A DNA stretch of 64,000 bases from Mobula hypostoma. Lineage: Eukaryota. Below, piece by piece: positions 2,493-35,475 of the stretch. How positions within the stretch are numbered: the first letter of the stretch is position 1; each line of letters begins with the position of its first letter. The position numbers and the translations under genes were made by a program. The stretch is from the NCBI RefSeq assembly GCF_963921235.1, contig NC_086097.1, forward strand, positions 2,542,001-2,606,000, read 5' to 3'. The notes under the pieces were generated by a model that saw nothing but the letters and a program-made list of their open reading frames with translations, ran no database searches and was not told the origin of the DNA.

Positions 2493-4803
2493 CCAGACCT
2501 GGAAATATGATGTGGTAGCTATTAGTGAAACATGGTTACAGGAGGGGTATGATTGGTAACTAAATATTCCTGGATTTCGTTGCTTCAGATGTGATAGAAT
2601 AGGAGGGACAAGAGGGGGAGGTGTTGCATTGCTTGTCAGAGATTATATAACAGCGGTGCTTTGGCAGGATAGATTAGTGGACTCGTCTAGGGAGGCTATT
2701 TGGGTGGAATTGAGGAGTGCAAAAGGTGTAGTGATGCTTATAGAGGTGTATTATAGACCACCTAATGGGGAGTGAAAACTGGAGGAGCAAACTTGTAAGG
2801 AGATAGCAGATATTTGTAGTAAGCACAAGGTTGTGATTGTGGGAGATTTTAATTTTCCACAAATTGACTGGGAAGCCCATACTGTAAAAGGGCTGGATGG
2901 TTTGGAGTTTGTCAAATGTGTGCAAGATAGTTTTTTGCAGCAATACATCGAGGTACCAGATAGAGAAGGGGCAGTGTTGGATCTCCTGTTAGGGAATGAG
3001 ATAGGGCAGGTGATAGAGGTATGTGTTGGGGAGCACTTCAGGTCCAGTGATCACAATACCATTACTTTCAATATAATTATGGAAAAGGATAGGACTGGAC
3101 ACAGGGTTGAGATTTTTGATTGGAGAAAGGCTAACTTTGAGGAGATGTGAAAGGATTTAGAAGGAGTGGATTGGGACAATTTGTTTTATGGGAAGGATGT
3201 AATAGAGAAATGGAGATAATTTAAAGGTGAAATTTTGAGGGTACAGGATCTTTATGTTCCTGTTAGGTTGAAAGGAAAGGTTAAAAGTTTGAGAGAGCCA
3301 TGGTTGTCAATGGATATTGGAAACTTGGTTCAGAAAAAGAGAGGGATCTACAATAAATATAGGCAGCATGGAGTAAGTGAGGTGCTCGAGGAATATAAAG
3401 AATGTAAAAAGAATCTTAAGAAAGAAATTAGAAAAGCTAAAAGAAGATATGAGGCTGCTTTGGCAAGTAAGGTGAAAATAAATCCAAAGAGTTTCTACAG
3501 TTATATTAATAGCAAAAGGATAGTGAGGGATAAAATTGGTCCCTTAGAGAATCAGAATGGACAGCTATGTGTGGCGCCAAAAGAGATGTGGGAGATTTTG
3601 AACAATTTCTTTTCTTCGGTATTCACTAAGGAGAAGGATATTGAATTGTGTAAGATAAGGGAAATGGGTAGGGAAGTTATGGAAACTATGATGATTAAAG
3701 AAGAGGAAGTACAGGTGCTTTTAAGGATTATAAAAGTGTATAAGTCTCTGGGTCCTGACAGGATATTCCCTATGACCTTGCGGGAAGTTAGTGTAGAACT
3801 AGCAGGGGCTCTGACAGAAATATTTCAAATGTCATTAAAAATAGGGATGGTGCCAGAGGGTTGGCGTCTTGCTCATGTTGTTCCATTGTTTAAAAAGGGT
3901 TCTAAGAGTAAACCTTGCTATTATCGGCCTGTGAGTTTGATGTCAGTGGTGGATAAATTGATGGAAAATATTCTTAGAGATAGTATATATAATTATCTGG
4001 ATAGACAGGGTCTGATTAGGAACAGTCAACATGGATTTGTGCGTGGAAGGTCATGTTTGACAAATCCTATTGGAATTTTTGATGAGGTTACCAGGAAAGT
4101 TGACGAGGGTAAAGCGGTGAATGTTGTCTAAATGGACTTCAGTAAGGCCTTTGACAAGGTTCCACATGGAAGGTTAGTTAGGAAGGTTCAATCGTTAGGT
4201 ATTAATGCCGAAGTAGTAAAATGGATTCAGCAGTGGCTAGATGGGAGACGCCAGAGAGTGGTGGTAGATAACTGTTTGTCAGATTGGAGGATGGTGTCTA
4301 GTGGTGTGCCTCAGGGATCTGTACTGGGTCCAATGTTGTTTGTCATATATATTAATGATCTGGATGATGGGGTGGTAAATTGGATGAGTAAGTATGCAGA
4401 TGATACTAAGATAGGTGGAGTTGTGGATAATGAAGTCGGTTTTCAAAGCTTGCAGAGAGATTTAGGCCAATTAGAAGAGTGGGCTGAAAGATGGCAGATG
4501 GAGTTTAATGCTGATAAATGTGAGGTGCTACATTTTGGTAGGACTAATCAAAATAGGACATACATGGTAAATGGTAGGGCATTGAAGAATGCAGTAGAAC
4601 AGAGGGATCTAGGAATAATGGTGCATAGTTCCCTGAAGGTGGAATCTCATGTGGATAGGGTGGTGAAGAAAGCTGGCCTTTATAAATCAGAGCATTGAGT
4701 ATAGGAAACAACAGGAATTCTGCAGATGCTGGAAATTCAAGCAACACACATCAAAGTTGCTGGTGAACGCAGCAGGCCAAGCAGCATCTATAGGAAGAGG
4801 CGC

Positions 4804-4839
4804 AGTCGACGTTTCAGGCCGAGACCCTTCGTCAGGACT
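4804..4839 (-). ncRNA. Minimal type I hammerhead ribozyme motif (PLE-type)
   Basis: Reverse complement reads AGTC-CTGACGA-A-GGG-TCTCGG-CCT-GAAA-CG-TC-GACT. Confidence 0.75.
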
Positions 4840-4875
4840 AGTCCTGACGAAGGGTCTCGGCCTGAAACGTCGACT
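4840..4875 (+). ncRNA. Minimal type I hammerhead ribozyme motif (PLE-type)
   Basis: Stem I AGTC/GACT, CUGACGA 4844-4850, short stem II, GAAA 4864-4867, ACGU palindromic stem III, GUC with predicted cleavage after 4871. Confidence 0.75.
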
Positions 4876-5794
4876 GCGCCTCTTCCTATACATTGAGTAT
4901 AGGAGTTGGGATGTAATGTTGAAATTGTATAAGGCATTGGTAAGGACAAATTTGGAGTATTGTGTACAGTTCTGGTCACCGAATTATAGGAACGATGTCA
5001 ATAAAATTGAGAGAGTACAGGGGAGATTTACTAGAATGTTGCCTGGGTTTCATCTCCTAAATTACAGAGAAAGGTTGAACAAGTTAGGTCTTTATTCTTT
5101 GGAGCGTAGAAGGTTGAGGGGGGACTTGATAGAGGTATTTAAAATTATGAGGGGGATAGGTAGAGTTGACATGGATAGGCTTTTTCCATTGAGAATGGGG
5201 GAGATTCAAACAAGAGGACATGAGTTGAGAGTTAAAGGGCAAAAGTTTAGGGGTAACATGAGGGGGAACTTCTTTACTCAGAGAGTGGTAGCTGTGTGGA
5301 ATGAGCTTCCAGCAGAAGTGGTTGAGGCAAGTTCGGTATTGTCATTCAAAGAAAAATTGGATAGGTATAAGGACAGGAAAGGAATGGAGGGTTATGGGCT
5401 GAGTGCAGGTCAGTGGGACTAGCTGAGAGTAAGAGTTCGGCACGGACTAGAAGGGCCGAGATTACCTGTTTCCGTGGTGTAATTGTTATATGGTCTTTGG
5501 GGAGCTGGAATTAAAATGCCTTGAAAAAGTCCACTTAGTATTTTAATATGACAACTGTTGAAAACACGGTGACACAGATTGCTAAAGATCAGACTGGCAG
5601 ACAGGATTCCATGCTGAATGCTGACATTAATATTTGTCCTCCAGGAACAATGGCAGCCAAAGATTGTTTTATACTTTATGCTCCTCTCTGTTAACATTGA
5701 CTCATGTCTGACCGGGGGAGTCAGGAGAGAACAGGATTAAAACTTTATTTTATTGATGTACAGAGTTAGTTGTACATTTTGTAATGGTCTGTAT

Positions 5795-17105: not shown

Positions 17106-18438
17106 AATTGTCTTTAACGATTATTTCTCATCTGTATTGACAGGGGAGGCAAGAGAAAAGAACAGGTGATGTCCTAAAACTTACCAACATTATAAAAAAG
17201 AGGTACTGGTAGCCTGGAGACACAAGGGCCTGAGCATGTGAGAACCCTTGACATGTGAGAAGCAAGGGAGGAAAATCCTGGCAGACTGGCGGAGATTTTT
17301 GTATCTTCCTTTGCCATGAGTGAGGTGCTGGAAGAGTGGCGAGTAGCTCATGCTGTGCCTTTATTTAAGAACAGAAATGAGAGCAGGTCAGGGTGGGAAA
17401 GCTACTGAGAAATGGGATCCATCTGCAAGAACAATCAGCATGGCCTTCTTGTGTCTCATCAATTCAACTGTGTGTATCAAAGAGGTGACCAAGGACATTG
17501 AGAAGGTCTGCACAAAAGATGGACTTTTGCAAGACACCGGACAAGGTCCTGGCCTGAAAGGTTAGAGCACATGCGATCCCGGATGAGCTGGTGAAACGAT
17601 ACAACACTGGCTTGGTGGAAGGAGGCAGACTGACTGGTTTTCAGATAGGAGGCCTGTGACCACTGGTGCAAAGCAGGCTCAGTGCGAGGTCCCCTCTTAA
17701 ATAGGAGCTGATGGCACAGTGGACAGTGAAGAACATTGTCCAAGATTACTGGCGAAAGAGGGCCAAAGAATGAGAGAGGGAATTTTATTTAAAATTCAGC
17801 AAGAGATACAGCAGAGTAACAGGAACTTCCAGCGCAATTACACCCGTGTGACCAATTAACTTACCAATACGAACACCTTTGGAATGTGGGAGGAAACCAG
17901 AGCATTCGGAGAAAACCCACACAATCACGTGGAGAAGCTACAAACTCCTTACAGACACTGCCAGGAATTGAACCGTGGTCACTGGCAATGTAATAACACT
18001 ACACCAGTGGGCCACTCTTGAAAATACACAACTCAGTATACTTTAATTGATGCACTTTGGGGAGTTAAAGCAAAGCAGGACATAATAATAATGAACGCTA
18101 GGGCCCTTGAGGGTGCTGAGTTCCTTCAATGTTTCGTGTGTGTTCCATTACTGTCTTATGCACCTAAACAGACAAAATAAACAGTAAGAGATAGAACAAA
18201 AGCAAGTCCATCATTGAACTTCAGGATCCCCATGACCCAGGACATGTCCTCCTCTCATTGCTACCAGCAAAAAAAAGTTCAAAGTACGTATACTTTACAC
18301 AATCTTGAGATTTGTCTTCTTACAGGCAGCTACAAAACAAAGCAACCCAATAGAATTCATTAAATAGACCATCAAACACCCAATGTGCAGAAAAAAAATA
18401 AACGCAAACAATAAAAGTAAGCAAATAAGCATTTGGAA

Positions 18439-18554
18439 ACAACAGGAATTCTGCAGATGCTGGAAATTCAAGCAACACACATCAAAGTTGCTGGTGAACG
18501 CAGCAAGCCAGGAAGCATCTCTAGGAAGAGGTACAGTCGACGTTTTAGGCCGAG
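18439..18554 (-). mobile_element. Penelope-like pLTR terminal fragment (truncated within hammerhead)
   Basis: Near-identical to 4708-4823; 11-bp TSD agcatttggaa at 18428-18438 and 18555-18565. Confidence 0.85.
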
Positions 18555-18993
18555 AGCATTTGGAACTGAAGTTCATGAAAGTGAGTCCACAGAAGGCCGT
18601 TACTTGCAGGCCACAGCCTCAGTTCAGTGCGGAGATCAGTAAACCTCATGGCCCTGGCCCAGGGTCATTTCTCACTCTCAGAGGAGGAACAGGAACCTGA
18701 AGACACACACTCAAAGTTTCAGGACAGCTTCTTCCCATCTGCCATCAGATTTCTGAATGGACAATACACCCGTGAGGATTAACTCAGCTTCCCCCCCCCA
18801 CTCTTTTTTGCACTACTTATTTAGCTTAATTCTTTTTTCCCCCGATTATATACTATTTGTAATTTAGTTTTTATGAATTGCACTGAACTGTTGTCATAAA
18901 ACAAATTTTATGACATAATCAGGAATAATAAACCTGATTCTGAATTTAAGTAAACAATAAAAAAAAGTTAACAAGTACAAAGTTTTCAACAAA

Positions 18994-20575: not shown

Positions 20576-20744
20576 TTGGAATCTCAGCTCAGGACACTTA
20601 GTGCTGTTGAAAAACCGGAGGTTCAGCCCCCCACCCCCCCGTCTTCATTTCCTTTACGGTATCAATCCAGGAAAAGAAGCTGACATATCCTAAAGTATTC
20701 GGAGATAAATCACTGTTGCTAAATCCCAAAGCTGATCAATGCAC

Positions 20745-22729
20745 ACCCCGCACTTCCCGTTTCTACCTCCTACCCAAGATCCACAAACCTGCCTGTCCTG
20801 GCCGACCTATTGTCTCAGCTTGCTCCTGCCCCACCGAACTCGTTTCTGCATACCTCGACACTGCTTTATCAACCCTTGTTCAATCCCTTCCGACCTATGT
20901 TCGTGACAATTCTCACGCTCTTAAACTTTTTGATGATTTTAAGTTTCCTGGCCCCCACCGCTTTATTTTCACCATGGATGTCCAGTCCTTATATACTTCC
21001 ATCCCCCATCAGGAAGGTCTCAAAGCTCTACGCTTCTTTTTGGATTCCAGACCTAATCAGTTCCCCTCTACCACCACTCTGCTCCATCTAGCGGAATTAG
21101 TCCTTACTCTTAATAATTTCTCCTTTGGCTCCTCCCATTTCCTCCAAACTAAAGGTGTAGCTATGGGCACCCATATGGGTCCTAGCTATGCCTGCCTTTT
21201 TGTTGGGTTTGTGGAACAATCTATGTTTCATGCCTATTCTGGTATCTGTCCCCCACTTTTCCTTCGCTACATCGACGACTGCATTGGCGCTGCTTCCTGC
21301 ACGCATGCAGAACTCGTTGACTTTATTAACTTTGCCTCCAACTTTCACCCTGCCCTCAAGTTTACCTGGTCCATTTCCGACACCTCCCTCCCCTTTCTAG
21401 ATCTTTCTGTCTCTGTCTCTGGAGACAGCTTATCTACTGATGTCTACTATAAGCCTACTGACTCTCACAGCTATCTGGACTATTCCTCTTCTCACCCTGT
21501 CTCTTGCAAAAACGCCATCCCCTTCTCGCAATTCCTCCGTCTCCGCCGCATCTGCTCTCAGGATGAGGCTTTTCATTCTAGGACGAAGGAGATGTCTTCC
21601 TTTTTTAAAGAAAGGGGCTTCCCTTCCTCCACTATCAACTCTGCTCTTAAACGTATCTCCCCCATTTCACGTACATCTGCTCTCACTCCATCCTCCCACC
21701 ACCCCACTAGGAATAGGGTTCCCCTGGTCCTCACCTACCACCCCACCAGCCTCCGGGTCCAACATATTATTCTCCGTAACTTCCGCCACCTCCAACGGGA
21801 TCCCACCACTAAGCACATCTTTCCCTCCCCCCCCCTCTGCTTTCCGCAGGGATCGCTCCCTACACAACTCCCTTCTCCATTCGTCCCCCCCATCCCTCCC
21901 CGCTGATCTCCCTCCTGGCACTTATCCGTGTAAGCGGAACAAGTGCTACACATGCCCTTACACTTCCTCCCTTACCACCATTCAGGGCCCCAAACAGTCC
22001 TTCCAGGTGAGGCATCACTTCACCTGTGAGTCGACTGGGGTGATATACTGCGTCCGGTGCTCCCAATGTGGCCTTTTATATATTGGTGAGACCCGACGCA
22101 GACTGGGAGACCGCTTTGCTGAACATCTACGCTCTGTCCGCCAGAGAAAGCAGGATCTCCCAGTGGCCACACATTTTAATTCCACATCCCATTCCCATTC
22201 TGACATGTCTGTCCACGGCCTCCTCTACTGTGGAGATGAAGCCACACTCAGGTTGGAGGAACAACACCTTATATTCCGTCTGGGTAGCCTCCAACCTGAT
22301 GGCATGAACATCGACTTCTCTAACTTCCGCTAAGGCCCCACCTCCCCCTCGTACCCCATCTGTTACTCATTTTTATGCACACATTCTTTCTCTCACTCTC
22401 CTTTTTCTCCCTCTGTCCCTCTGAATATACCTCTTGCCCATCCTCTGGGTCACCCACCCCCCCGTCTTTCTTCCCGGACCTCCTGTCCCATGATCCTCTC
22501 GTATCCCCTTTTGTCTATCACCTGTCCAGCTCTTGGCTCTATCCCTCCCCCTCCTGTCTTCTCCTATCATTTTGGATCTCCCCCTCCCCCTCCTACTTTC
22601 AAATCCCTTACTCACTCTTCCTTCAGTTAGTCCTGACGAAGGGTCTCGGCCTGAAACGTCAACTGCACCTCTTCCTATAGATGCTGCTTGGCCTGCTGCG
22701 TTCACCAGCAACTTTGATGTATGTTGTTC
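20745..22729 (+). mobile_element. Young 5'-truncated Penelope-like element (RT + GIY-YIG endonuclease + pLTR)
   Basis: [39 protein letters not shown]...GVIYCVRCSQCGLLYIGETRRRLGDRFAEH; 8-bp TSD caatgcac at 20737-20744 and 22730-22737. Confidence 0.93.
22629..22664 (+). ncRNA. Minimal hammerhead ribozyme motif in PLE pLTR
   Basis: AGTC-CTGACGA-AGGGTCTCGGCCT-GAAA-CGTC-AACT; core intact, one stem I mismatch. Confidence 0.7.
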
Positions 22730-22805
22730 CAATGCACTTACACACCATTTACACTAGATGGCATTTTGCACAAAGCTTCACATTGCAAGCCAAGAATGTT
22801 ATACT

Positions 22806-22871
22806 GACAAATGAACCCTCACTTTGCTATTATTCAGTATAACATAATAGCAAAGTGAGGGTTCATTTGTC
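22806..22871. repeat. Perfect inverted repeat, 28-bp arms with 10-nt spacer
   Basis: gacaaatgaaccctcactttgctattat (22806-22833) / ataatagcaaagtgagggttcatttgtc (22844-22871). Confidence 0.95.
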
Positions 22872-23154: not shown

Positions 23155-25690
23155 AATAGAACCATAGAACACGACAGCACAGAAAACAGGCCATTCGGCC
23201 CTTCTAGTCTGTGCCGAAACTTTATTCCACTAGTCCCATTGACCTGCACCCAGTCCATAACCCTCCAGACCTCTCCCGTCCATGTATCTATCCAATTTAT
23301 TCTTAAAACCTAAGAGTGAGCCCGCATTTATCACGTTAGATGGCAGCTTGTTCCACACTCCCACCACTGAGTGAAGTTCTCCCTAATGTTCCCCCTAAAC
23401 CTTTCCCCTTCACCCTAAAGCCATGTCCTCTCATATTTATCTCTCCTAATCCAAGTGGAAAGAGCCTACTCGCATTTACTCTGTCTATACCCCTCATAAT
23501 TTTGTAAACCTCTATCAAATCTCCCCTCATTCTTCTACGCTCCAAGGAATAAAGTCCTAACCTGTTCAATCTTTCCCTGTAACTCAACTCCTGAAGACCT
23601 AGCAACATCCTAGTAAATCTTCTCTGCACTCTTTCAATCTTACTGATATCCTTCCTATAGTTAGGTGACCAGAGTTGCACACAATACTCCAAATTTGGCC
23701 TCACCAATGTCTTATACAACCTCCTCATAACATCCCAACTCCTATACTCAATACTTTGATTTATGAATGCCAGGATGCCAAAAGCCTTCTTTACAACCCT
23801 GTCTACGTGTGACGACCCGGCTGGTGGCATAGTGGCATCAGCGTCGGACTTCCAGACGAAAGATCCTGGGTTCGAATCCAGCCGGCCAGCTCCCCTGCAC
23901 ACTTCCCATCCGTGCTGGGTTACAAGCTGGTGATCTCTTTGGAAACTCACCCGGCAGAAGACAATGGCAAAACACTGCTGTAACTTGCCTCGTACTCAAT
24001 TCTCCACTACGTCAGAGAGGCATGGAGGGAAATTGTCTGCTAACCGGAGAAACTCCGGATGTGAAGCACCTTTCCTACCTGTGACACCACTTTCAAGGAA
24101 TTATGTATCTGAACTCCCTGATCCCTTTGTTCCTCCGCACTCCTCAGTGCCCTACCATTTACTGTGTATGTCCTACCTTGATTTGTCCTTCCAAAATGCA
24201 ACACCTCACACTTGTCTGCTTTAAATACCATCTGCCATTTTCTGGCCCATTTTTCCAGTTGGTCCAGATCCCTCCGCAAGCATTGAAAGCCTTCCTCACT
24301 GTGCACAACACCTCCAATCTTAGCGTCATCAGCAAACTTGTTGATCGAATTTACCACAATATTATCTAGGTCACTGATATAGACAACAAACATCAATGGT
24401 CCCAGCACAGATCCCTGAGGCATACCACTAGTCACAGGCCTCCAGTCTGAGAAGCAATCATCCACTACCACTCTCTGTCTTCTCCCACACAGCCAATTTC
24501 TAATCCAGTTTACAACCTCTCCATGGATACCTAGTGTCTGAACCTTCTGAACTAACCTCCCATGTGGCACCTTGTCAAAGGCCTTACTAAGGTCCATGTA
24601 GACAACATCCACAGCTTTTTCTTCGTCTACTTTCTTGGTGACCTCCTCGAAAAACTCTACAAGATTCGTTAAACACGATCTACCATGCACAAAGCCATGC
24701 TGACTATCCTTAATCAACCCTTGGCTGTCTAAATACTTGTATATCCGATCTCTCAGAACACCTTCCAATAATTTACCTACTACTGATGTCAGGCTCACTG
24801 GCCTGTAATTACCTGGTTTACTTTGGAGCCTTTTTTAAAAAACGGAACAACATGAGCTACCCTCCAATCCTCCGGCACCGCACCCGTGGCTCAGGACATT
24901 TTAAATATTTCTGCCAGGGTCTCTGCAATTTCTACACTAGTCTCTCTCAAGGTCCGAGGAAATATCATGTCAGGCCCGGGGGATTTAACTACATTTATTC
25001 GCTGTAAGGCAGCAAGCACCTCCTCCTCTTTAATCTCTATATGTTCCATGACACTACTGCTTGTTTCCCTTCCTTCCATATACACTCTGCCAGTTTCCTG
25101 AGTAAATACAGATGCAAAAAAATTGTTTAAGATCTCCCACATCTTGCGAGGCTCCACAAATAGACAACCCCTCTGATCAAGGGGACCAATTTTGTCCCTT
25201 ACAATTACCCTTAATATAGTTGTAGAACCCCTTCGGGTTTACCTTCACATTATCTGCCAAAGCAACCTCATGTCTTCTTTTTGCCTTCCTGATTTCCTTC
25301 TTTAGTATTTTCTATACTCTTCAAGTACCTCATTTGTTCTTTGTTGCCTATACCTGCTATACACCTCTCTCTTTTTCTTAACCAGATCGCCAATATCCCT
25401 TGAAAACCAAGGCTTTCTATGCCTGTAAATTTTGCCTTTAATCCTGGCAGGAACATGCAAACTCTGCACTCTCAAAATTTCGCCTTTGAATGCCTTCCAC
25501 TTACTGAACACATCCTTGCCAGAAAACAACTTATCCCAATCCACTCTTCCTAGATCCTTTCTCATTTCCTCAAAATTGGCCCTTCTCCAATTTAGAACCT
25601 TAACTCGAGGACCAGTCCTATCCTTATCTGTAATTAACTTGAGGCTAATGACATTATGGACAATTATGACCCAAAATGTTCACCTAATTA
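23155..25690 (-). mobile_element. CR1-type LINE ORF2, 5'-truncated, interrupted by SINE
   Basis: ORFs 23336-23950, 24040-24798 and 24891-25157 carry RT motifs (DLSKAFDKV, FADD). Confidence 0.9.
23816..24073 (+). mobile_element. tRNA-derived SINE
   Basis: Box A TGGCATAGTGG (23825-23835), box B GGTTCGAATCC (23869-23879); imperfect TSD ctac(g/c)tgtgac. Confidence 0.8.
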
Positions 25691-30616: not shown

Positions 30617-31837
30617 GTGAGTCCGTCTATAAGGCCTAACGATGTGTTGCGCGGGTCCGTCCTGCGGCGGCGAGGACCCGGTTGGGTCGGGTCGCAGTGA
30701 TGGGTTATGTCAATCCTTTGACAGTCGAGCTGAAATAACCGGGAGGACGGTGGGTCCCGGCCCGAAACGCCGCCTGTTTCCCGGTCGGGGGTCCATAGAC
30801 CCCTTGTTTAATGCAGTAAAAGGGGTTGCGACCCCTCCAAAGATTCCCCCAGCATTGTCCGTGTGATGCATCTGTTGTGGCTGAATACCCCGAGTTTCAG
30901 GTTGGCCAGGCATTTCCACGCCACTCCATACATGTTTATCATAAACAAAAGCGGATACAGTACAATTAAACCAGCGGGTGGAGGGCTTGCGCCCTCGGGT
31001 TGGGTGTGAGGTGTTTATTTGTGGACGGGGAGATTTTTTTTCCCCACAAGATTTTATTTTAGACCCCAGTTAATTCTGCGAAAGGATCAGTTAGCCTCCC
31101 CGAGGTGCTCCAGCCGTTGACTCGCGTCTGTCTGGCGCCATTTTTACGTAATGGGTTTGGGCGGCTGTGATTGGTCCGCTGACTCTTTGTGGAGCGCGGA
31201 TACAGATCATGTATCGGGTTGGGTTCATCTTCATGCTCTTACAGTGAGGAACCAGTTCAGATCTGCTGCCCATGTTCATGTGGGAGAGCCAACAGCCTCA
31301 GAATAGAGGGACGCCCCTTTACAACAGAGATGCAGGATTTCTTTATCCAGAGGACAGTGATCTCTGGAATTCATTGGCAGACACGGCTGTGGATGCCAAG
31401 TCATTGGGCATATTCAAAGTGGAGGTTGCTAGGTTTATTGATTAGTCAGGGTGTCGAAGGTTACAGAGCAAAGGCAAGAGAATGGGGTTGAGGGGGATAA
31501 TAAATCAGCCATGATGGAATGATAGCACACTCGATGGGCTGAATGGCTTAATTCTGTACCTATGTCATGTGGTCTGTACATCCGGTATTGATCATCTCAG
31601 CCTTTTCTGCTCCAGCTCTTTTTAAATTAGCCACTGAAGGTCCACGTATATCAATTGAATCCCGTGGGCTTTGCTGATTACACTGTATTTTGGCAGTGTT
31701 GGATGCACCTACTGACACAGAATCCATCTGATGCTCTTTTTCTACTAATTTAATTTGTAGTTTTCAAAACTATTATATATGGCAATGTACTGGTGCAATA
31801 TAAATTTCATGATGTATGTCAGTGATACTAAAAGTGA

Positions 31838-33032
31838 AGCAACACACATCAAAGTTGCTGGTGAATGCAGCAGGCCAGGCAGCATCTCTAGGAAGAGGTA
31901 TAGTCGACGTTTCGGGCCGAGACCCTTCGTCAGGACTAACTGAAGGAAGAGTGAGTAAGGGATTTGAAAGGGGGCGGGGGAGATCCAAAATGATAGGAGA
32001 AGACAGGAGGGGGAGGGATGGAGCCAAGAGCTGGACAGGTGATTGGCAAAGAGGATACGAGAGGATCATGGGACAGGAGGTCTGGGAAGAAAGGAAAGGG
32101 GGGAGGGGGCGAAACCCAGAGGATGAGCAAGGGGTATAGTGAGAGGGACAGAGGGAGAAAAAGGAGAGTGAGAGAAAGAATGTGTGTGTATAAATAAATA
32201 ACGAATGGGGTACGAGGGGGAGGTGGGGCATTAGTGGTAGTTTGAGAAGTCAATGTTCATGCCATCAGGTTGGAGGCTACCCAGACAGAATGTAAGGTGT
32301 TCTTCCTCCAACCTGAGTGTGGCTTCATCTTTACAGTAGAGGAGGACGTGGATAGACATATCAGAGTGGGAATGGGACGTGGAATTAAAATGTGTGGCCA
32401 CTGGGAGATCCTGCTTTCTCTGGCGGACAGAGCGTAGGTGTTCAGCAAAATGATCTCCCAGTCTGCGTCGGGTCTCACCAATATATAGAAGGCCACATCG
32501 GGAGCACCGGACGCAGTATATCACCCCAGCCGACTCACAGGTGAAGTGTCGCCTCACTGGAAGGACTGTCTGGGGCCCTGAATGGTGGTGAGGGAGGAAG
32601 TGTAAGGGCACGTGTAGCACTTGTTCTGCTTACAAGGATAAGTGCCAGGAGGGAGATCAGTGGGGAGGGAAGGGGGGGAGGGAGTTGCGTAGGGAGCGAT
32701 CCCTGTGGAAAGCAGAGAGGGGGAGAGGGAAAGATGTGCTTAGTCGTGGGATCCCGTTGGAGGTGGCGGAAGTTACGGAGAATAATATGTTGGACCCGGA
32801 GGCTGGTGGGGTGGTAGGTGAGGACCAGGGGAACCCTATTCCTAGTGGGTTGGCGGGAGGACGGAGTGAGAGCAGATGTGCATGAAATGGGGGAGATGCA
32901 TTTGAGAGCAGAGTTGATGGTGGAGGAAGGGAAGCCTCTTTCTTTAAAAAAGGAGGACATCTCCCTCGTCTTAGAATGAAAAGCCTCACCCTGAGAGCAG
33001 ATGCGGTGGAGACGGAAGAATTCCTCGTGTTT
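31838..33032 (-). mobile_element. Penelope-like element 3' fragment (RT end, GIY-YIG, pLTR) in UBR7 intron 1
   Basis: ORF 32231-32620 GVIYCVRCSRCGLLYIGETRRRL; pLTR near-identical to 22333-22725. Confidence 0.9.
31902..31937 (-). ncRNA. Minimal hammerhead ribozyme motif in PLE pLTR (intact)
   Basis: Minus strand AGTC-CTGACGA-A-GGG-TCTCGG-CCC-GAAA-CGTC-GACT. Confidence 0.75.
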
Positions 33033-35475
33033 GTGATAATAAAAATGATTCTGATTACTAAAAACCCTTGAGTCTGTTCTGCGTAGACCCAAGTTTCTGT
33101 ATTGGATGAGTTTCTAATGTACTGCAGTTGTTTGTACACTATATGCATTTGAGTTTGCTGTCAGTAAAAGCTAGTCGTTTTCTGCTACTGAACATAGAAT
33201 AGAATCAGGCCCTTCAGCCCACAATACTGTGCTGAACCAATTACTGCTGGAAATGAATCCCTGCTGTTTGATTAGTAACTTTACAGTACTTGGCTTTGGC
33301 TCACAGTGCATTTGGGTCCTTGGCAGCATTTGCCTGTGTTTTTTTTTGTCCCTGTCAATTTGCTGTTGGCTCTCAAATTGCCTGTGTTTATTTATTTAGA
33401 GGTACAGTACCGTGTGTAACAGGCCCCGGCTCCCTGAGCCCCACCTTCCAGTAACCCACCTTTTAACCCGAACCTAATCCCAGGTGTTTGCGGGGAGACA
33501 GTGCTGGGATTGAAACCTGAACTCTGGAATCTCTCAAGCAGAAAAGGCTTCATGCTAACCATGACGCTACTGTGTCCTGTAAATCATTGTCTGTTTGGTC
33601 CAATGTGAATCAGATTGCTGTAGGATTGGCCACAGCAATGGAGAGGGTCGACTACACCTTGTATGTAGATACTGGTAAATTCATTGATATTGTCACATGT
33701 GTAAGATCTGGTATTGTGATCAGTTGAGTATGATGTTCTATGGTGTTGTCTATTTATGGGTCCTCCGGTGTCTGTACAGGCTGATCTGGGATCCACACAC
33801 TCTGGTGCAGTGTGGACACGAGTAAGTGGTGTCTCTGGTGACTGGTCGGGTCTTTTGATTGTTCAGTCTCTCCTTTCACAGCGGCTGCTTGTTCTCTGCG
33901 GCACTGTGTACGTTGTTCTCGTGTAGCGCATCTCCCTCTTGAACAGATTTCCTCCAGGTCTATCTATTGAGTGCTGTGCCTTCCCAGTTTTTAAATGTAA
34001 TGTTGAACTTCAGGCTGATTTTGATGTCATCTTTGAAGCATTTTCTTTGCCCACCGGGGGCTCACTGACTTCCCTCTACTGGGGGTAAAGGATCTGTTTG
34101 AGGAGATGCGAGTTAGACATCGAATGACACGATCTCTCCATCGGAGGTGGTGTTGCTTTTTCATGGTGGAGATACCATTCATGTCAGCCGCCTCCAGTAC
34201 GTGGGTGTGGTGTGTCTGTCCTTCCAGCAAAGTCTTTTGTAAGATTTTTTTTTTTTAGCAGTTTTGATGCAGGGTGTAGAATAAAATACTACCGAGAGAG
34301 GGTGGGGCAGGACCATAACAAGGTAGATTGTGAGGTACTTATCGTACTCCAGTCCTTAAACTGGTGAAGATGTCCTTGAGCCTGTTGTGATGTGCTTCAA
34401 GGCTTTTGTACCATCTGTGCGATTGAAGGGGATGAGCGGTGCAGAGAAGAGAGATTGTGCAGGCTGGGTGGAACCTTGGATTATGCTGGTTGCTTCCTGA
34501 GGCTGTGAGAAGTGTACATACAGTCCATGAGGGAGAGGCTTGATCTGTCTGGATAGACGGTCTCAACGCAAAGAGCAACTACTGTATCTGTTTTCTTCTC
34601 CAGATGTTCCCTGACCCACGGAGTCCCTCCAGTGGCTGTTTGTGTTCCAGCGTCTGCAGTCTTGTGCTTCTCTGACGTTGCTAACATTGGCTCTGGGACA
34701 GGGGCTCCCGTCATTTTTTTATGCCATAGAGCCTTTACGCTTGTGTGCTGGAAATGACCTGTAAGTCTTCAGCTGTGAAAGCTCTGATCCCTGGAATTAA
34801 TTTAGTAACACAGAAAATGCTGGAGGACCTCAGCAGGTCAGGCAGCATCCATAGAAAAGACTGAACAGTTGACATTTTGGGCCGAGACCCTTCTTCAGGA
34901 ATTACTGCCTTTTTAATTATTTTTGATGCTACCAAACGCTCTTCAAATCTTTTTGTTGCCTACCTCTTATGTTCAGTGGTTCATTGTTGGGTTGTCTGAT
35001 AACTATTCCTTGGAGCAAGCTGCCAGGAAGCACCCTGGGACGTTTTTAAAAGGCCTTGTGGGGACTTGCACATGATTGTCTTTTATAAATACTCTGTTAA
35101 AAACCAGAAGGGTGAGTGTGTTTTGTGTGGTACAGGAAGTTTCTGAGTTTGATGTATGTACAACTGAGAGAGGCACTTTGGATAAATTCAGTTGAATTCG
35201 TAACCCCTTAACCTCTTGCTCTGTGTCACTGTATGGAGTTTGAAGGTGAGAGCTCAGAGACTGTGTTCCTGAGTTAAATTCCACATTTGACTGTGTTTCA
35301 ATCTTTTGCTTCCTCCAGCCATTTGTTTAGACAGGTTGTGTCTCTGTCTCTCTCACTCTCTCTCTAGGACCTGACCCAGTAATTGCTGTATTTATGATTT
35401 ATCTTTGTTCCTTAACAAAGATGATGTCGCTGATGATCTGCCTTTCTGAAGTTACTGATTTGCTTTCCCCTGCAG

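Follow-up and report, generated by a model that had tools for sequence, protein, structure and literature searches.

We analysed a 64,000-nucleotide stretch of Mobula hypostoma DNA (contig NC_086097.1, positions 2,542,001 to 2,606,000; hereafter the window, whose numbering is used throughout). A 184-bp insert in a long interspersed nuclear element (LINE) in this window contains a perfect palindrome, and each arm of the palindrome carries a minimal hammerhead ribozyme motif. We are confident that a single insertion of an abundant young Penelope-like element (PLE), dead on arrival, gave this unit as a by-product of integration. The locus is an instance of an already described type of PLE insertion and no new ribozyme element. 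To judge from its sequence, the insert is the last 133 nt of the PLE, including a 32-nt tail, placed head-to-head with an inverted 51-nt copy of the same segment. The parent element lacks the palindrome, which marks where two 5'-truncated copies of one 3' end meet. Both copies arrived in a single integration, because one target-site duplication (TSD) brackets the composite and a paralogous LINE copy keeps the empty site.

Geometry of the insert and its parent element

The insert occupies 4707-4890 between two perfect 14-bp copies of CATTGAGTATAGGA, located at 4693-4706 and 4891-4904. This is the sole direct repeat that a repeat finder detected in 4400-5200. The palindrome is 102 bp long (4789-4890). 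Its arms, 4789-4839 and 4840-4890, measure 51 + 51 nt and are separated by zero spacer. Both the window sequence and the repeat finder place the centre, ACT-AGT, between 4839 and 4840. The repeat finder stretches the arms to 54 nt at 98%, the extra letters being chance matches in the flanks. Read on the minus strand, the insert consists of the inverted arm (positions 51 to 1 of the 133-nt segment), the forward arm (positions 1 to 101) and the tail (positions 102 to 133), and these 51, 101 and 32 nt make up the 184 bp. Numbering of the segment begins at the A of AGTCC, 4 nt 5' of CUGACGA. The parts are:

4693-4706, no strand: left copy of the TSD CATTGAGTATAGGA, 14 bp, a direct repeat present in single-copy form in a paralogous LINE copy
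4707-4738, minus: putative PLE tail, 32 nt, reading GAATTTCC...CTGTTGTT in the element sense; outer 3' end of the forward arm, on that side only
4739-4839, minus: forward arm, the 101 nt of the PLE that immediately precede the tail; holds a minimal hammerhead
4840-4890, plus: inverted arm, positions 1-51 of the 133-nt segment on the opposite strand
4891-4904, no strand: right copy of the TSD, 14 bp, a direct repeat

The insert splits a LINE, and an uninterrupted copy of the same site is found elsewhere in the window:

2776-5422, plus: host LINE copy with EEP endonuclease and reverse transcriptase (RT), a pseudogene by Pfam and frame analysis
23726-23761, minus: paralogous LINE copy with an uninterrupted (empty) target site, found by sequence search of the window

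Pfam matched both the RT (RVT_1, E = 1.3e-23) and the EEP endonuclease (Exo_endo_phos_2, E = 5.5e-08) of the host LINE. An in-frame stop is found at 4129-4131 and a frame change near 4672-4698. Compared with other copies, assembled as contigs from public runs, the host is about 11 letters short at 4672-4674. Because of the stop and the missing letters, the host LINE is, as read from its frames, dead irrespective of the insertion. A plus-strand frame (4667-5422) is open across the insert for 251 aa without a stop, and the insert with its TSD measures 198 nt (66 codons). We take this frame as a coincidence of host read-through, with no open reading frame (ORF) belonging to the insert. An initial annotation of the window had described the perfect palindrome with its ACT-AGT centre, the 184-bp insert within a perfect 14-bp TSD, the split LINE ORF and the lack of an ORF in the insert itself, and our analysis agrees on each point.

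The empty site at 23726-23761 holds one copy of the 14-mer and differs at 3 of 36 nt (chance expectation 0). The contigs of other LINE copies link 4692 to 4891, with 14 letters in common. The insertion and its TSD are real features of the sequence, because the sequence itself, the repeat finder, the empty-site paralogue and the LINE contigs agree. It is hardly credible that assembly created the palindrome artificially from long reads that formed a foldback chimera. Chimeric library molecules can indeed yield long perfect palindromes, and no read or contig was seen to span this locus, the pieces from four public runs being short contigs of the repeat families with repeat-level coverage alone. 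However, a chimera does not account for the clean 14-bp TSD and the empty-site paralogue, nor for the same TSD-flanked architecture with a one-sided tail at dozens of sampled loci (see below).

Three further copies of the PLE in the window bear on the origin of the insert:

20611-22728, plus: tail-less, 5'-truncated PLE copy with RT and GIY-YIG ORF remnants, a CX4CX2C linker, a C/T-rich 3' region of about 300 nt and a hammerhead at 22633-22660
31837-33160, minus: second tail-less PLE copy; hammerhead core at 31906-31933, with C at position 11.1
18438-18557, minus: further tail-bearing PLE insertion with TSD GCATTTGGA; plain 5' truncation within helix II, without an inverted arm

The forward arm (4739-4839, minus) aligns with the 3' ends of the two tail-less copies, at 22629-22728 (plus) and 31837-31937 (minus). 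The hammerhead cores of these copies, at 22633 (plus) and 31906 (minus), are non-palindromic, lie about 300 nt 3' of the RT and GIY-YIG ORF remnants and are preceded by ...CTTCCTTCAGTT. Both copies terminate at ...TGTGTTGCTT (window 22728 and 31837), and the insert runs 32 nt further. The translated remnants contain the RT motifs LPKIHK and YIDD and the GIY-YIG endonuclease motif GVIYCVRC...LYIGET. Pfam matched RVT_1 (E = 5.7e-06) and GIY-YIG (E = 0.0012), neither of which reaches its curated cut-off. The domain content of these remnants indicates that the parent element is a PLE with RT and GIY-YIG domains. It is probably of the Neptune type, which has a CX2-5CxxC linker between RT and endonuclease, because the ORF at 21401-22333 has a CX4CX2C linker, CKRNKCYTC, ahead of the GIY-YIG domain. 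By analogy, we infer that the 32-nt stretch is the PLE tail and that it corresponds to the interval between two RT start sites, as in an Anolis element (PMC11167929).

The available text of Craig et al. 2021 (PMC8557442) describes PLE insertions with strong 5' truncation, often with an adjacent inverted 5'-truncated copy, with a tail of 30-40 bp that is often found at one end only, and with a hammerhead in the terminal repeat. For complex tandem or inverted PLE insertions it cites Evgen'ev & Arkhipova 2005 and Arkhipova 2006. Our insert has the corresponding features, namely an origin from an element with RT and GIY-YIG, a one-sided tail, an adjacent inverted truncated copy and a TSD round the whole unit. 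As far as that text goes, it resembles the endonuclease-positive insertions in truncation, inverted neighbour, one-sided tail, hammerhead and an RT + GIY-YIG parent. Unlike them, it is an extreme case: 133 + 51 nt are left, the joint lies at the edge of the hammerhead, and neither an ORF nor a direct pseudo-LTR (long terminal repeat) is present. We also considered a non-LTR retrozyme. In the part of the preprint available (Li, Clavereau & Pollet 2026, bioRxiv 10.64898/2026.07.22.740005), these elements are, like our insert, small, ORF-less, hammerhead-bearing and PLE-derived. However, they consist of direct tandem repeats and are thought to cycle through circular RNA. Here the two motifs are inverted, a TSD is present, and there is no sign of amplification of the unit. 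This does not match the direct-repeat arrangement of a retrozyme.

Recurrence of the architecture across the genome

The assembly is 3.48 Gb in size, and a 32-mer across the boundary between tail and arm has 44,171 exact occurrences in it. We sampled 70 consecutive tail-bearing places in 4 Mb of one contig (C1), omitting the place described above and one place 429 bp from another. These were aligned to a reference made of the window PLE copy plus the tail. Joints were scored by BLAST arm ends; a search for perfect even-centred palindromes missed most of them (small overlaps or fillers). An adjacent inverted arm was found in 41 copies, whereas 23 were simple 5' truncations and 6 extended beyond the fetched DNA. 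The outer end of the inverted arm lies at the tail-less end (reference 3326-3337) in 27/41 and within 3315-3337 in 36/41, and none of the 41 inverted arms carries a tail. The two arms meet no more than 2 nt from the same position in 10/41 joints and no more than 10 nt in 16/41. An exact common flank, at least 10 nt and usually 13-15 nt long, surrounds the whole unit in 52 of the 63 evaluable loci. The initial annotation had offered an extreme PLE truncation and inversion as one explanation of the insert, and this is what we found: 133 nt and an inverted 51 nt within one TSD, in an architecture shared by 41 of the 70 sampled copies. A continuation common to the flanks after the tail, which would be a sign of full-length or tandem copies, was found in 0/70 sampled flanks, and the 5' region of the element was not seen.

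The hammerhead core is kept in both arms at 18 of the 70 places. Among the first 100 motif places listed there are 5 back-to-back hammerhead pairs, with no more than 100 nt between the two motifs, including the present one. Because both cores are kept this often, the flank is shared by most evaluable loci and such pairs appear even in that short list, a back-to-back double hammerhead in one TSD is an everyday product of this PLE. Scaling 18/70 to the 44,171 junctions extrapolates to roughly ten thousand inverted pairs with both cores in the genome. At one place in the sample, two tail-bearing copies (L034 and L035, contig C1 397084-400752) face each other about 3.7 kb apart. The two may have inserted separately or may form one long-armed pair with a tail on each side.

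The other explanation in the initial annotation was a tiny non-autonomous ribozyme element. Such a foldback element would be a hairpin, a 'ribozyme SINE' (short interspersed nuclear element), that is transcribed and retrotransposed by PLE enzymes. Several numbers could be read in its favour. The exact 30-nt palindrome centre is found at 53 places in the genome, copies of the 184-bp unit with 98-100% identity number at least 40, and each examined copy has its own TSD. We compared 21 unique loci of the 53 places. They lie at different sites with different flanks, and their inverted arms are mostly 86-106 nt long, the shortest being those at the present locus (51 nt) and at the atypical locus L016 (27 nt).

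The sequence variation among these loci argues strongly against one family. At least 8 haplotypes are found in the 21 loci. Their variants (positions 39, 50, 60, 93 and others) also segregate in ordinary PLE copies, and recurrent variants are identical in both arms in 19/22 observations, unshared differences being mainly single CpG changes. This pattern argues for recurrence and not for a master hairpin, because many symmetric haplotypes cannot come from a single master but can come from repeated formation out of a variety of source RNAs. When two other palindrome centres were picked from randomly sampled loci, they proved to recur at similar frequency, at 24 and 4 genomic places. The centre itself sits in a general hot spot of arm ends. 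In addition, a promoter is not evident, the 5' flank of a source locus is found in no examined copy, and the 53 sites amount to about 0.1% of the 44,171 tail junctions. A foldback family of 53 sites is therefore very improbable, and we count the 184-bp unit among many events that happened independently. The initial annotation had looked to independent copies of the junction as the mark of a family. The copies do exist, at 53 places with their own TSDs, but they reflect recurrence.

Formation of the head-to-head unit

An Anolis PLE protein cleaves and extends both target strands in vitro (Frangieh et al. 2024, PMC11167929). In the same work reverse transcription begins at two adjacent internal sites, the interval between them corresponds to the tail, and the integration steps after first-strand synthesis are yet to be validated. 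Our element compares well in that the tail would match the stretch between the initiation sites, roughly 70-100 nt 3' of the hammerhead cut, with both strands serving as primers in vitro. The two cases differ in that the Anolis work was done in vitro on an element of another clade (Penelope/Poseidon), and its main text gives no distal/proximal rule for inverted pairs.

We consider it about an even chance that the unit formed by priming on both target strands. In this mechanism, which we infer from the scars, the PLE ribonucleoprotein would cut both target strands about 14 bp apart, and both would prime complementary DNA (cDNA). The tailed cDNA, which becomes the forward arm, would begin at the distal start site. 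The tail-less cDNA, which becomes the inverted arm, would begin at the proximal start site or, at the present locus, further in, at position 51. Both cDNAs would copy one RNA, or sister RNAs of one source, up to position 1 (the A of AGUCC, at the 5' edge of helix I). The two cDNAs would then be joined at their 3' ends, possibly via the 2-nt self-complementary TA at the centre. A start inside the segment, such as position 51 here, belongs to a minority, since 5/41 sampled inverted arms begin elsewhere than at the proximal end.

The insert resembles the product of L1 twin priming, in which a 5' inversion arises during target-primed reverse transcription, by priming from the second strand, within one TSD. 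In L1, the inverted segment derives from another portion of the RNA, nearer its 5' end. Our insert is a true palindrome, as its two arms represent one and the same 3'-terminal segment.

Snap-back self-priming would also produce a palindrome: one tail-primed cDNA reaches the end of the template, folds back and copies itself. This accounts directly for the perfect or near-perfect symmetry in 10/41 joints and at the present locus, and for the same haplotype in both arms in 19/22 observations. Under this model the inverted arm should carry a tail or stop at random, whereas none of the 41 inverted arms has a tail and 27 of them end where independent tail-less insertions end. The arms differ by more than 10 nt in 25/41 joints. 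At some loci (L048, L043), the inverted arm extends further 5' than the forward arm, which is impossible by simple snap-back. On stereochemical reasoning, a loop-less hairpin would also be unable to prime. The same-centre locus L012, which has two arm haplotypes, fits two template molecules better than self-copying. We regard snap-back as rather unlikely.

Arm ends are not spread evenly over the segment. They are enriched at position 1 +/- 2, which accounts for 15 of the 76 ends mapped within a span of 111 nt (binomial 1.3e-06; symmetric loci count twice). A palindrome centre at position 1 is relatively common because arm ends concentrate there. The pile-up, at the A of AGTCC +/- 2 nt, corresponds to window 22612-22635 of the parent copy and to reference 3228-3232. 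The sequence immediately upstream, CTCTTCCTTCAG followed by TTAGTCC, resembles a splice acceptor and also an initiator. In the accessible part of Cervera & de la Pena 2014 (PMC4209133), the intron of the Drosophila virilis PLE terminates at the 5' edge of helix I. Self-complementarity of helix I (AGTC/GACT) could favour joints at AGTCC, as in L093. At the predicted cleavage site, between GUC and G (reference 3262-3263), we found 4/105 sampled arm ends (binomial 0.05). These are the inverted arms of L060, L086 and L093 and the forward arm of L043. They give a weak hint that cleaved RNA sometimes serves as template.

A broader reading is that the scars, extrapolated to tens of thousands of TSD-flanked head-to-head insertions in this genome, are an in vivo footprint of coordinated integration, in which both strands prime one RNA, one always at the distal site, giving the tail, and the other at the proximal site. 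In the same reading, the cDNAs would end preferentially at the 5' edge of helix I, possibly also at the predicted ribozyme cut. We hold this reading only tentatively and think it somewhat doubtful as a whole. If it is true, arm ends mark the true 5' termini of the RNAs used as PLE templates, and they are a first genomic sign that the minimal hammerhead, or an adjacent start or splice site, shapes the template in vivo. In the titles and abstracts found, this PLE family and a proximal-site start of the inverted arm are undescribed; subscription papers and supplements lay outside the scope of the search.

Several points weigh against our interpretation. Two-strand priming alone leaves the 10/41 symmetric joints unexplained. 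It also leaves unexplained why the start of the inverted arm is here at 51 instead of close to 101, and the 5/41 arms that start elsewhere pose the same difficulty. The arms of L012 differ in haplotype. No full-length element with a repeat upstream was seen, the identity of the tail rests on analogy, and the PLE clade label comes from a linker motif. The architecture sample is restricted to 4 Mb of one contig, and BLAST alignments fix the sampled arm ends only to within a few bases. The lack of a read across the locus, mentioned above, counts here as well.

Tens of thousands of young PLE copies (44,171 tail junctions and 46,104 hammerhead cores) carry strikingly regular scars. The regularity includes the one-sided tail, a single TSD round each pair, hot spots where arms end and agreement of haplotype between the arms. 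What follows first-strand synthesis in PLE integration is unsettled, so cataloguing all of these scars could tell the models apart without any wet-lab system.

Hammerhead motifs and the predicted RNA hairpin

The hammerhead boxes CTGACGA...GAAAC-GTC are located at 4844-4871 (plus) and 4808-4835 (minus), and the two motifs stand 8 nt apart. The elements of the plus-strand motif and its minus-strand counterpart are:

4839-4843 and 4872-4876, plus: helix I, TAGTC pairing with GACTG
4844-4850, plus: first core box, CTGACGA
4851, plus: bulged A, an extra base after position 9
4852-4855 and 4860-4863, plus: helix II, GGGT pairing with GCCT
4856-4859, plus: loop CTCG
4864-4867, plus: second core box, GAAA
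4868, plus: C15.2
4869-4871, plus: cleavage triplet GTC, predicted cut between 4871 and 4872
4808-4835, minus: minus-strand hammerhead core, predicted cut between 4808 and 4807

Each arm contains the catalytic boxes CUGANGA and GAAA and the NUH-type triplet GUC in type-I order. Helix I has 5 bp (UAGUC/GACUG); its first U is supplied by the other arm and is the same as the parent's base. Helix II has 4 bp, two of them G.U pairs (GGGU/GCCU), and is closed by the loop CUCG. Both helices are present in the predicted monomer fold. A palindromic ACGU (A15.1 C15.2 G16.2 U16.1) replaces helix III, as would be expected of a motif competent to act as a dimer. The conserved G10.1-C11.1 pair is lacking, since U at 4863 (position 11.1) makes it a G.U wobble; the canonical pair is found in the PLE copy at 31906-31933. 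The initial annotation had described each arm as a complete minimal hammerhead motif, and apart from this pair the boxes are indeed found on both strands.

Among exact 31-nt hammerhead cores in the genome, 39,897 have U at 11.1 and 6,207 have C, a total of 46,104. The PLE, to go by these counts, spread while carrying a weakened core pair. The young majority form has U at this position and an older or minor form has C (window 4863 vs the 31914 region). The Rfam hammerhead models gave zero matches at the gathering score in the whole window and zero at E <= 10 in 4600-5000, which may be due to the missing helix III of the motif.

Minimal hammerheads (min-HHRs) without helix III are described in PLE repeats in the accessible part of Cervera & de la Pena 2014 (PMC4209133), which also reports dual min-HHRs on opposite strands, 100-700 bp apart, in Schistosoma. 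Compared with the metazoan PLE motifs described there, ours has the same boxes, the GUC, the palindromic ACGU at 15.1-16.1, a 5-bp helix I and neither helix III nor loop 3. It differs in U at 11.1 and in a helix II of 4 bp, as against 6-8 bp in Schistosoma and Drosophila, and its activity is a prediction. According to the portions available of three papers (PMC11167929, PMC4209133, PMC6765202), PLE minimal hammerheads cleave poorly, and solely as direct dimers or with the element protein. Both motifs in the insert are passengers, and no function is expected of them.

The initial annotation had also proposed an RNA hairpin of about 50 bp. Folding in silico reproduces it with a stem of 49 bp; the energy of the complete insert is -123.8 kcal/mol for one strand and -126.7 kcal/mol for the other. 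Whichever strand is transcribed, a sense motif is predicted to be locked against its own antisense, which would leave the hammerhead fold closed. We considered whether such an RNA has been exapted, either as a source of small RNAs against the PLE or as a self-inhibited ribozyme. The perfect 49-bp stem is compatible with this idea, and the roughly ten thousand extrapolated inverted pairs could feed RNA interference if transcribed. Rfam microRNA hairpin matches were also obtained, but they are below threshold, and any perfect hairpin gives such matches. Moreover, the locus lies within a dead LINE and comes without evidence of transcription, and same-centre arms decay at CpG independently, as neutral DNA would. 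Exaptation thus has a very slim chance of being correct. The locus itself is of little importance, being neutral debris inside a dead LINE.

The microRNA families in question, mir-3926 (51.2 bits, gathering score 82) and mir-3547 (29.2 bits, gathering score 77), are under threshold, reflect generic pairing of the arms and were rejected. Small nucleolar RNA matches in Rfam at E <= 10 in 4600-5000 were likewise below threshold and generic. An unrelated inverted repeat of about 27 nt per arm (caaatgaaccctcactttgctatta ... taatagcaaagtgagggttcatttg) with an AT-rich loop is found at 22805-22870, just 3' of the PLE copy that ends at 22728.

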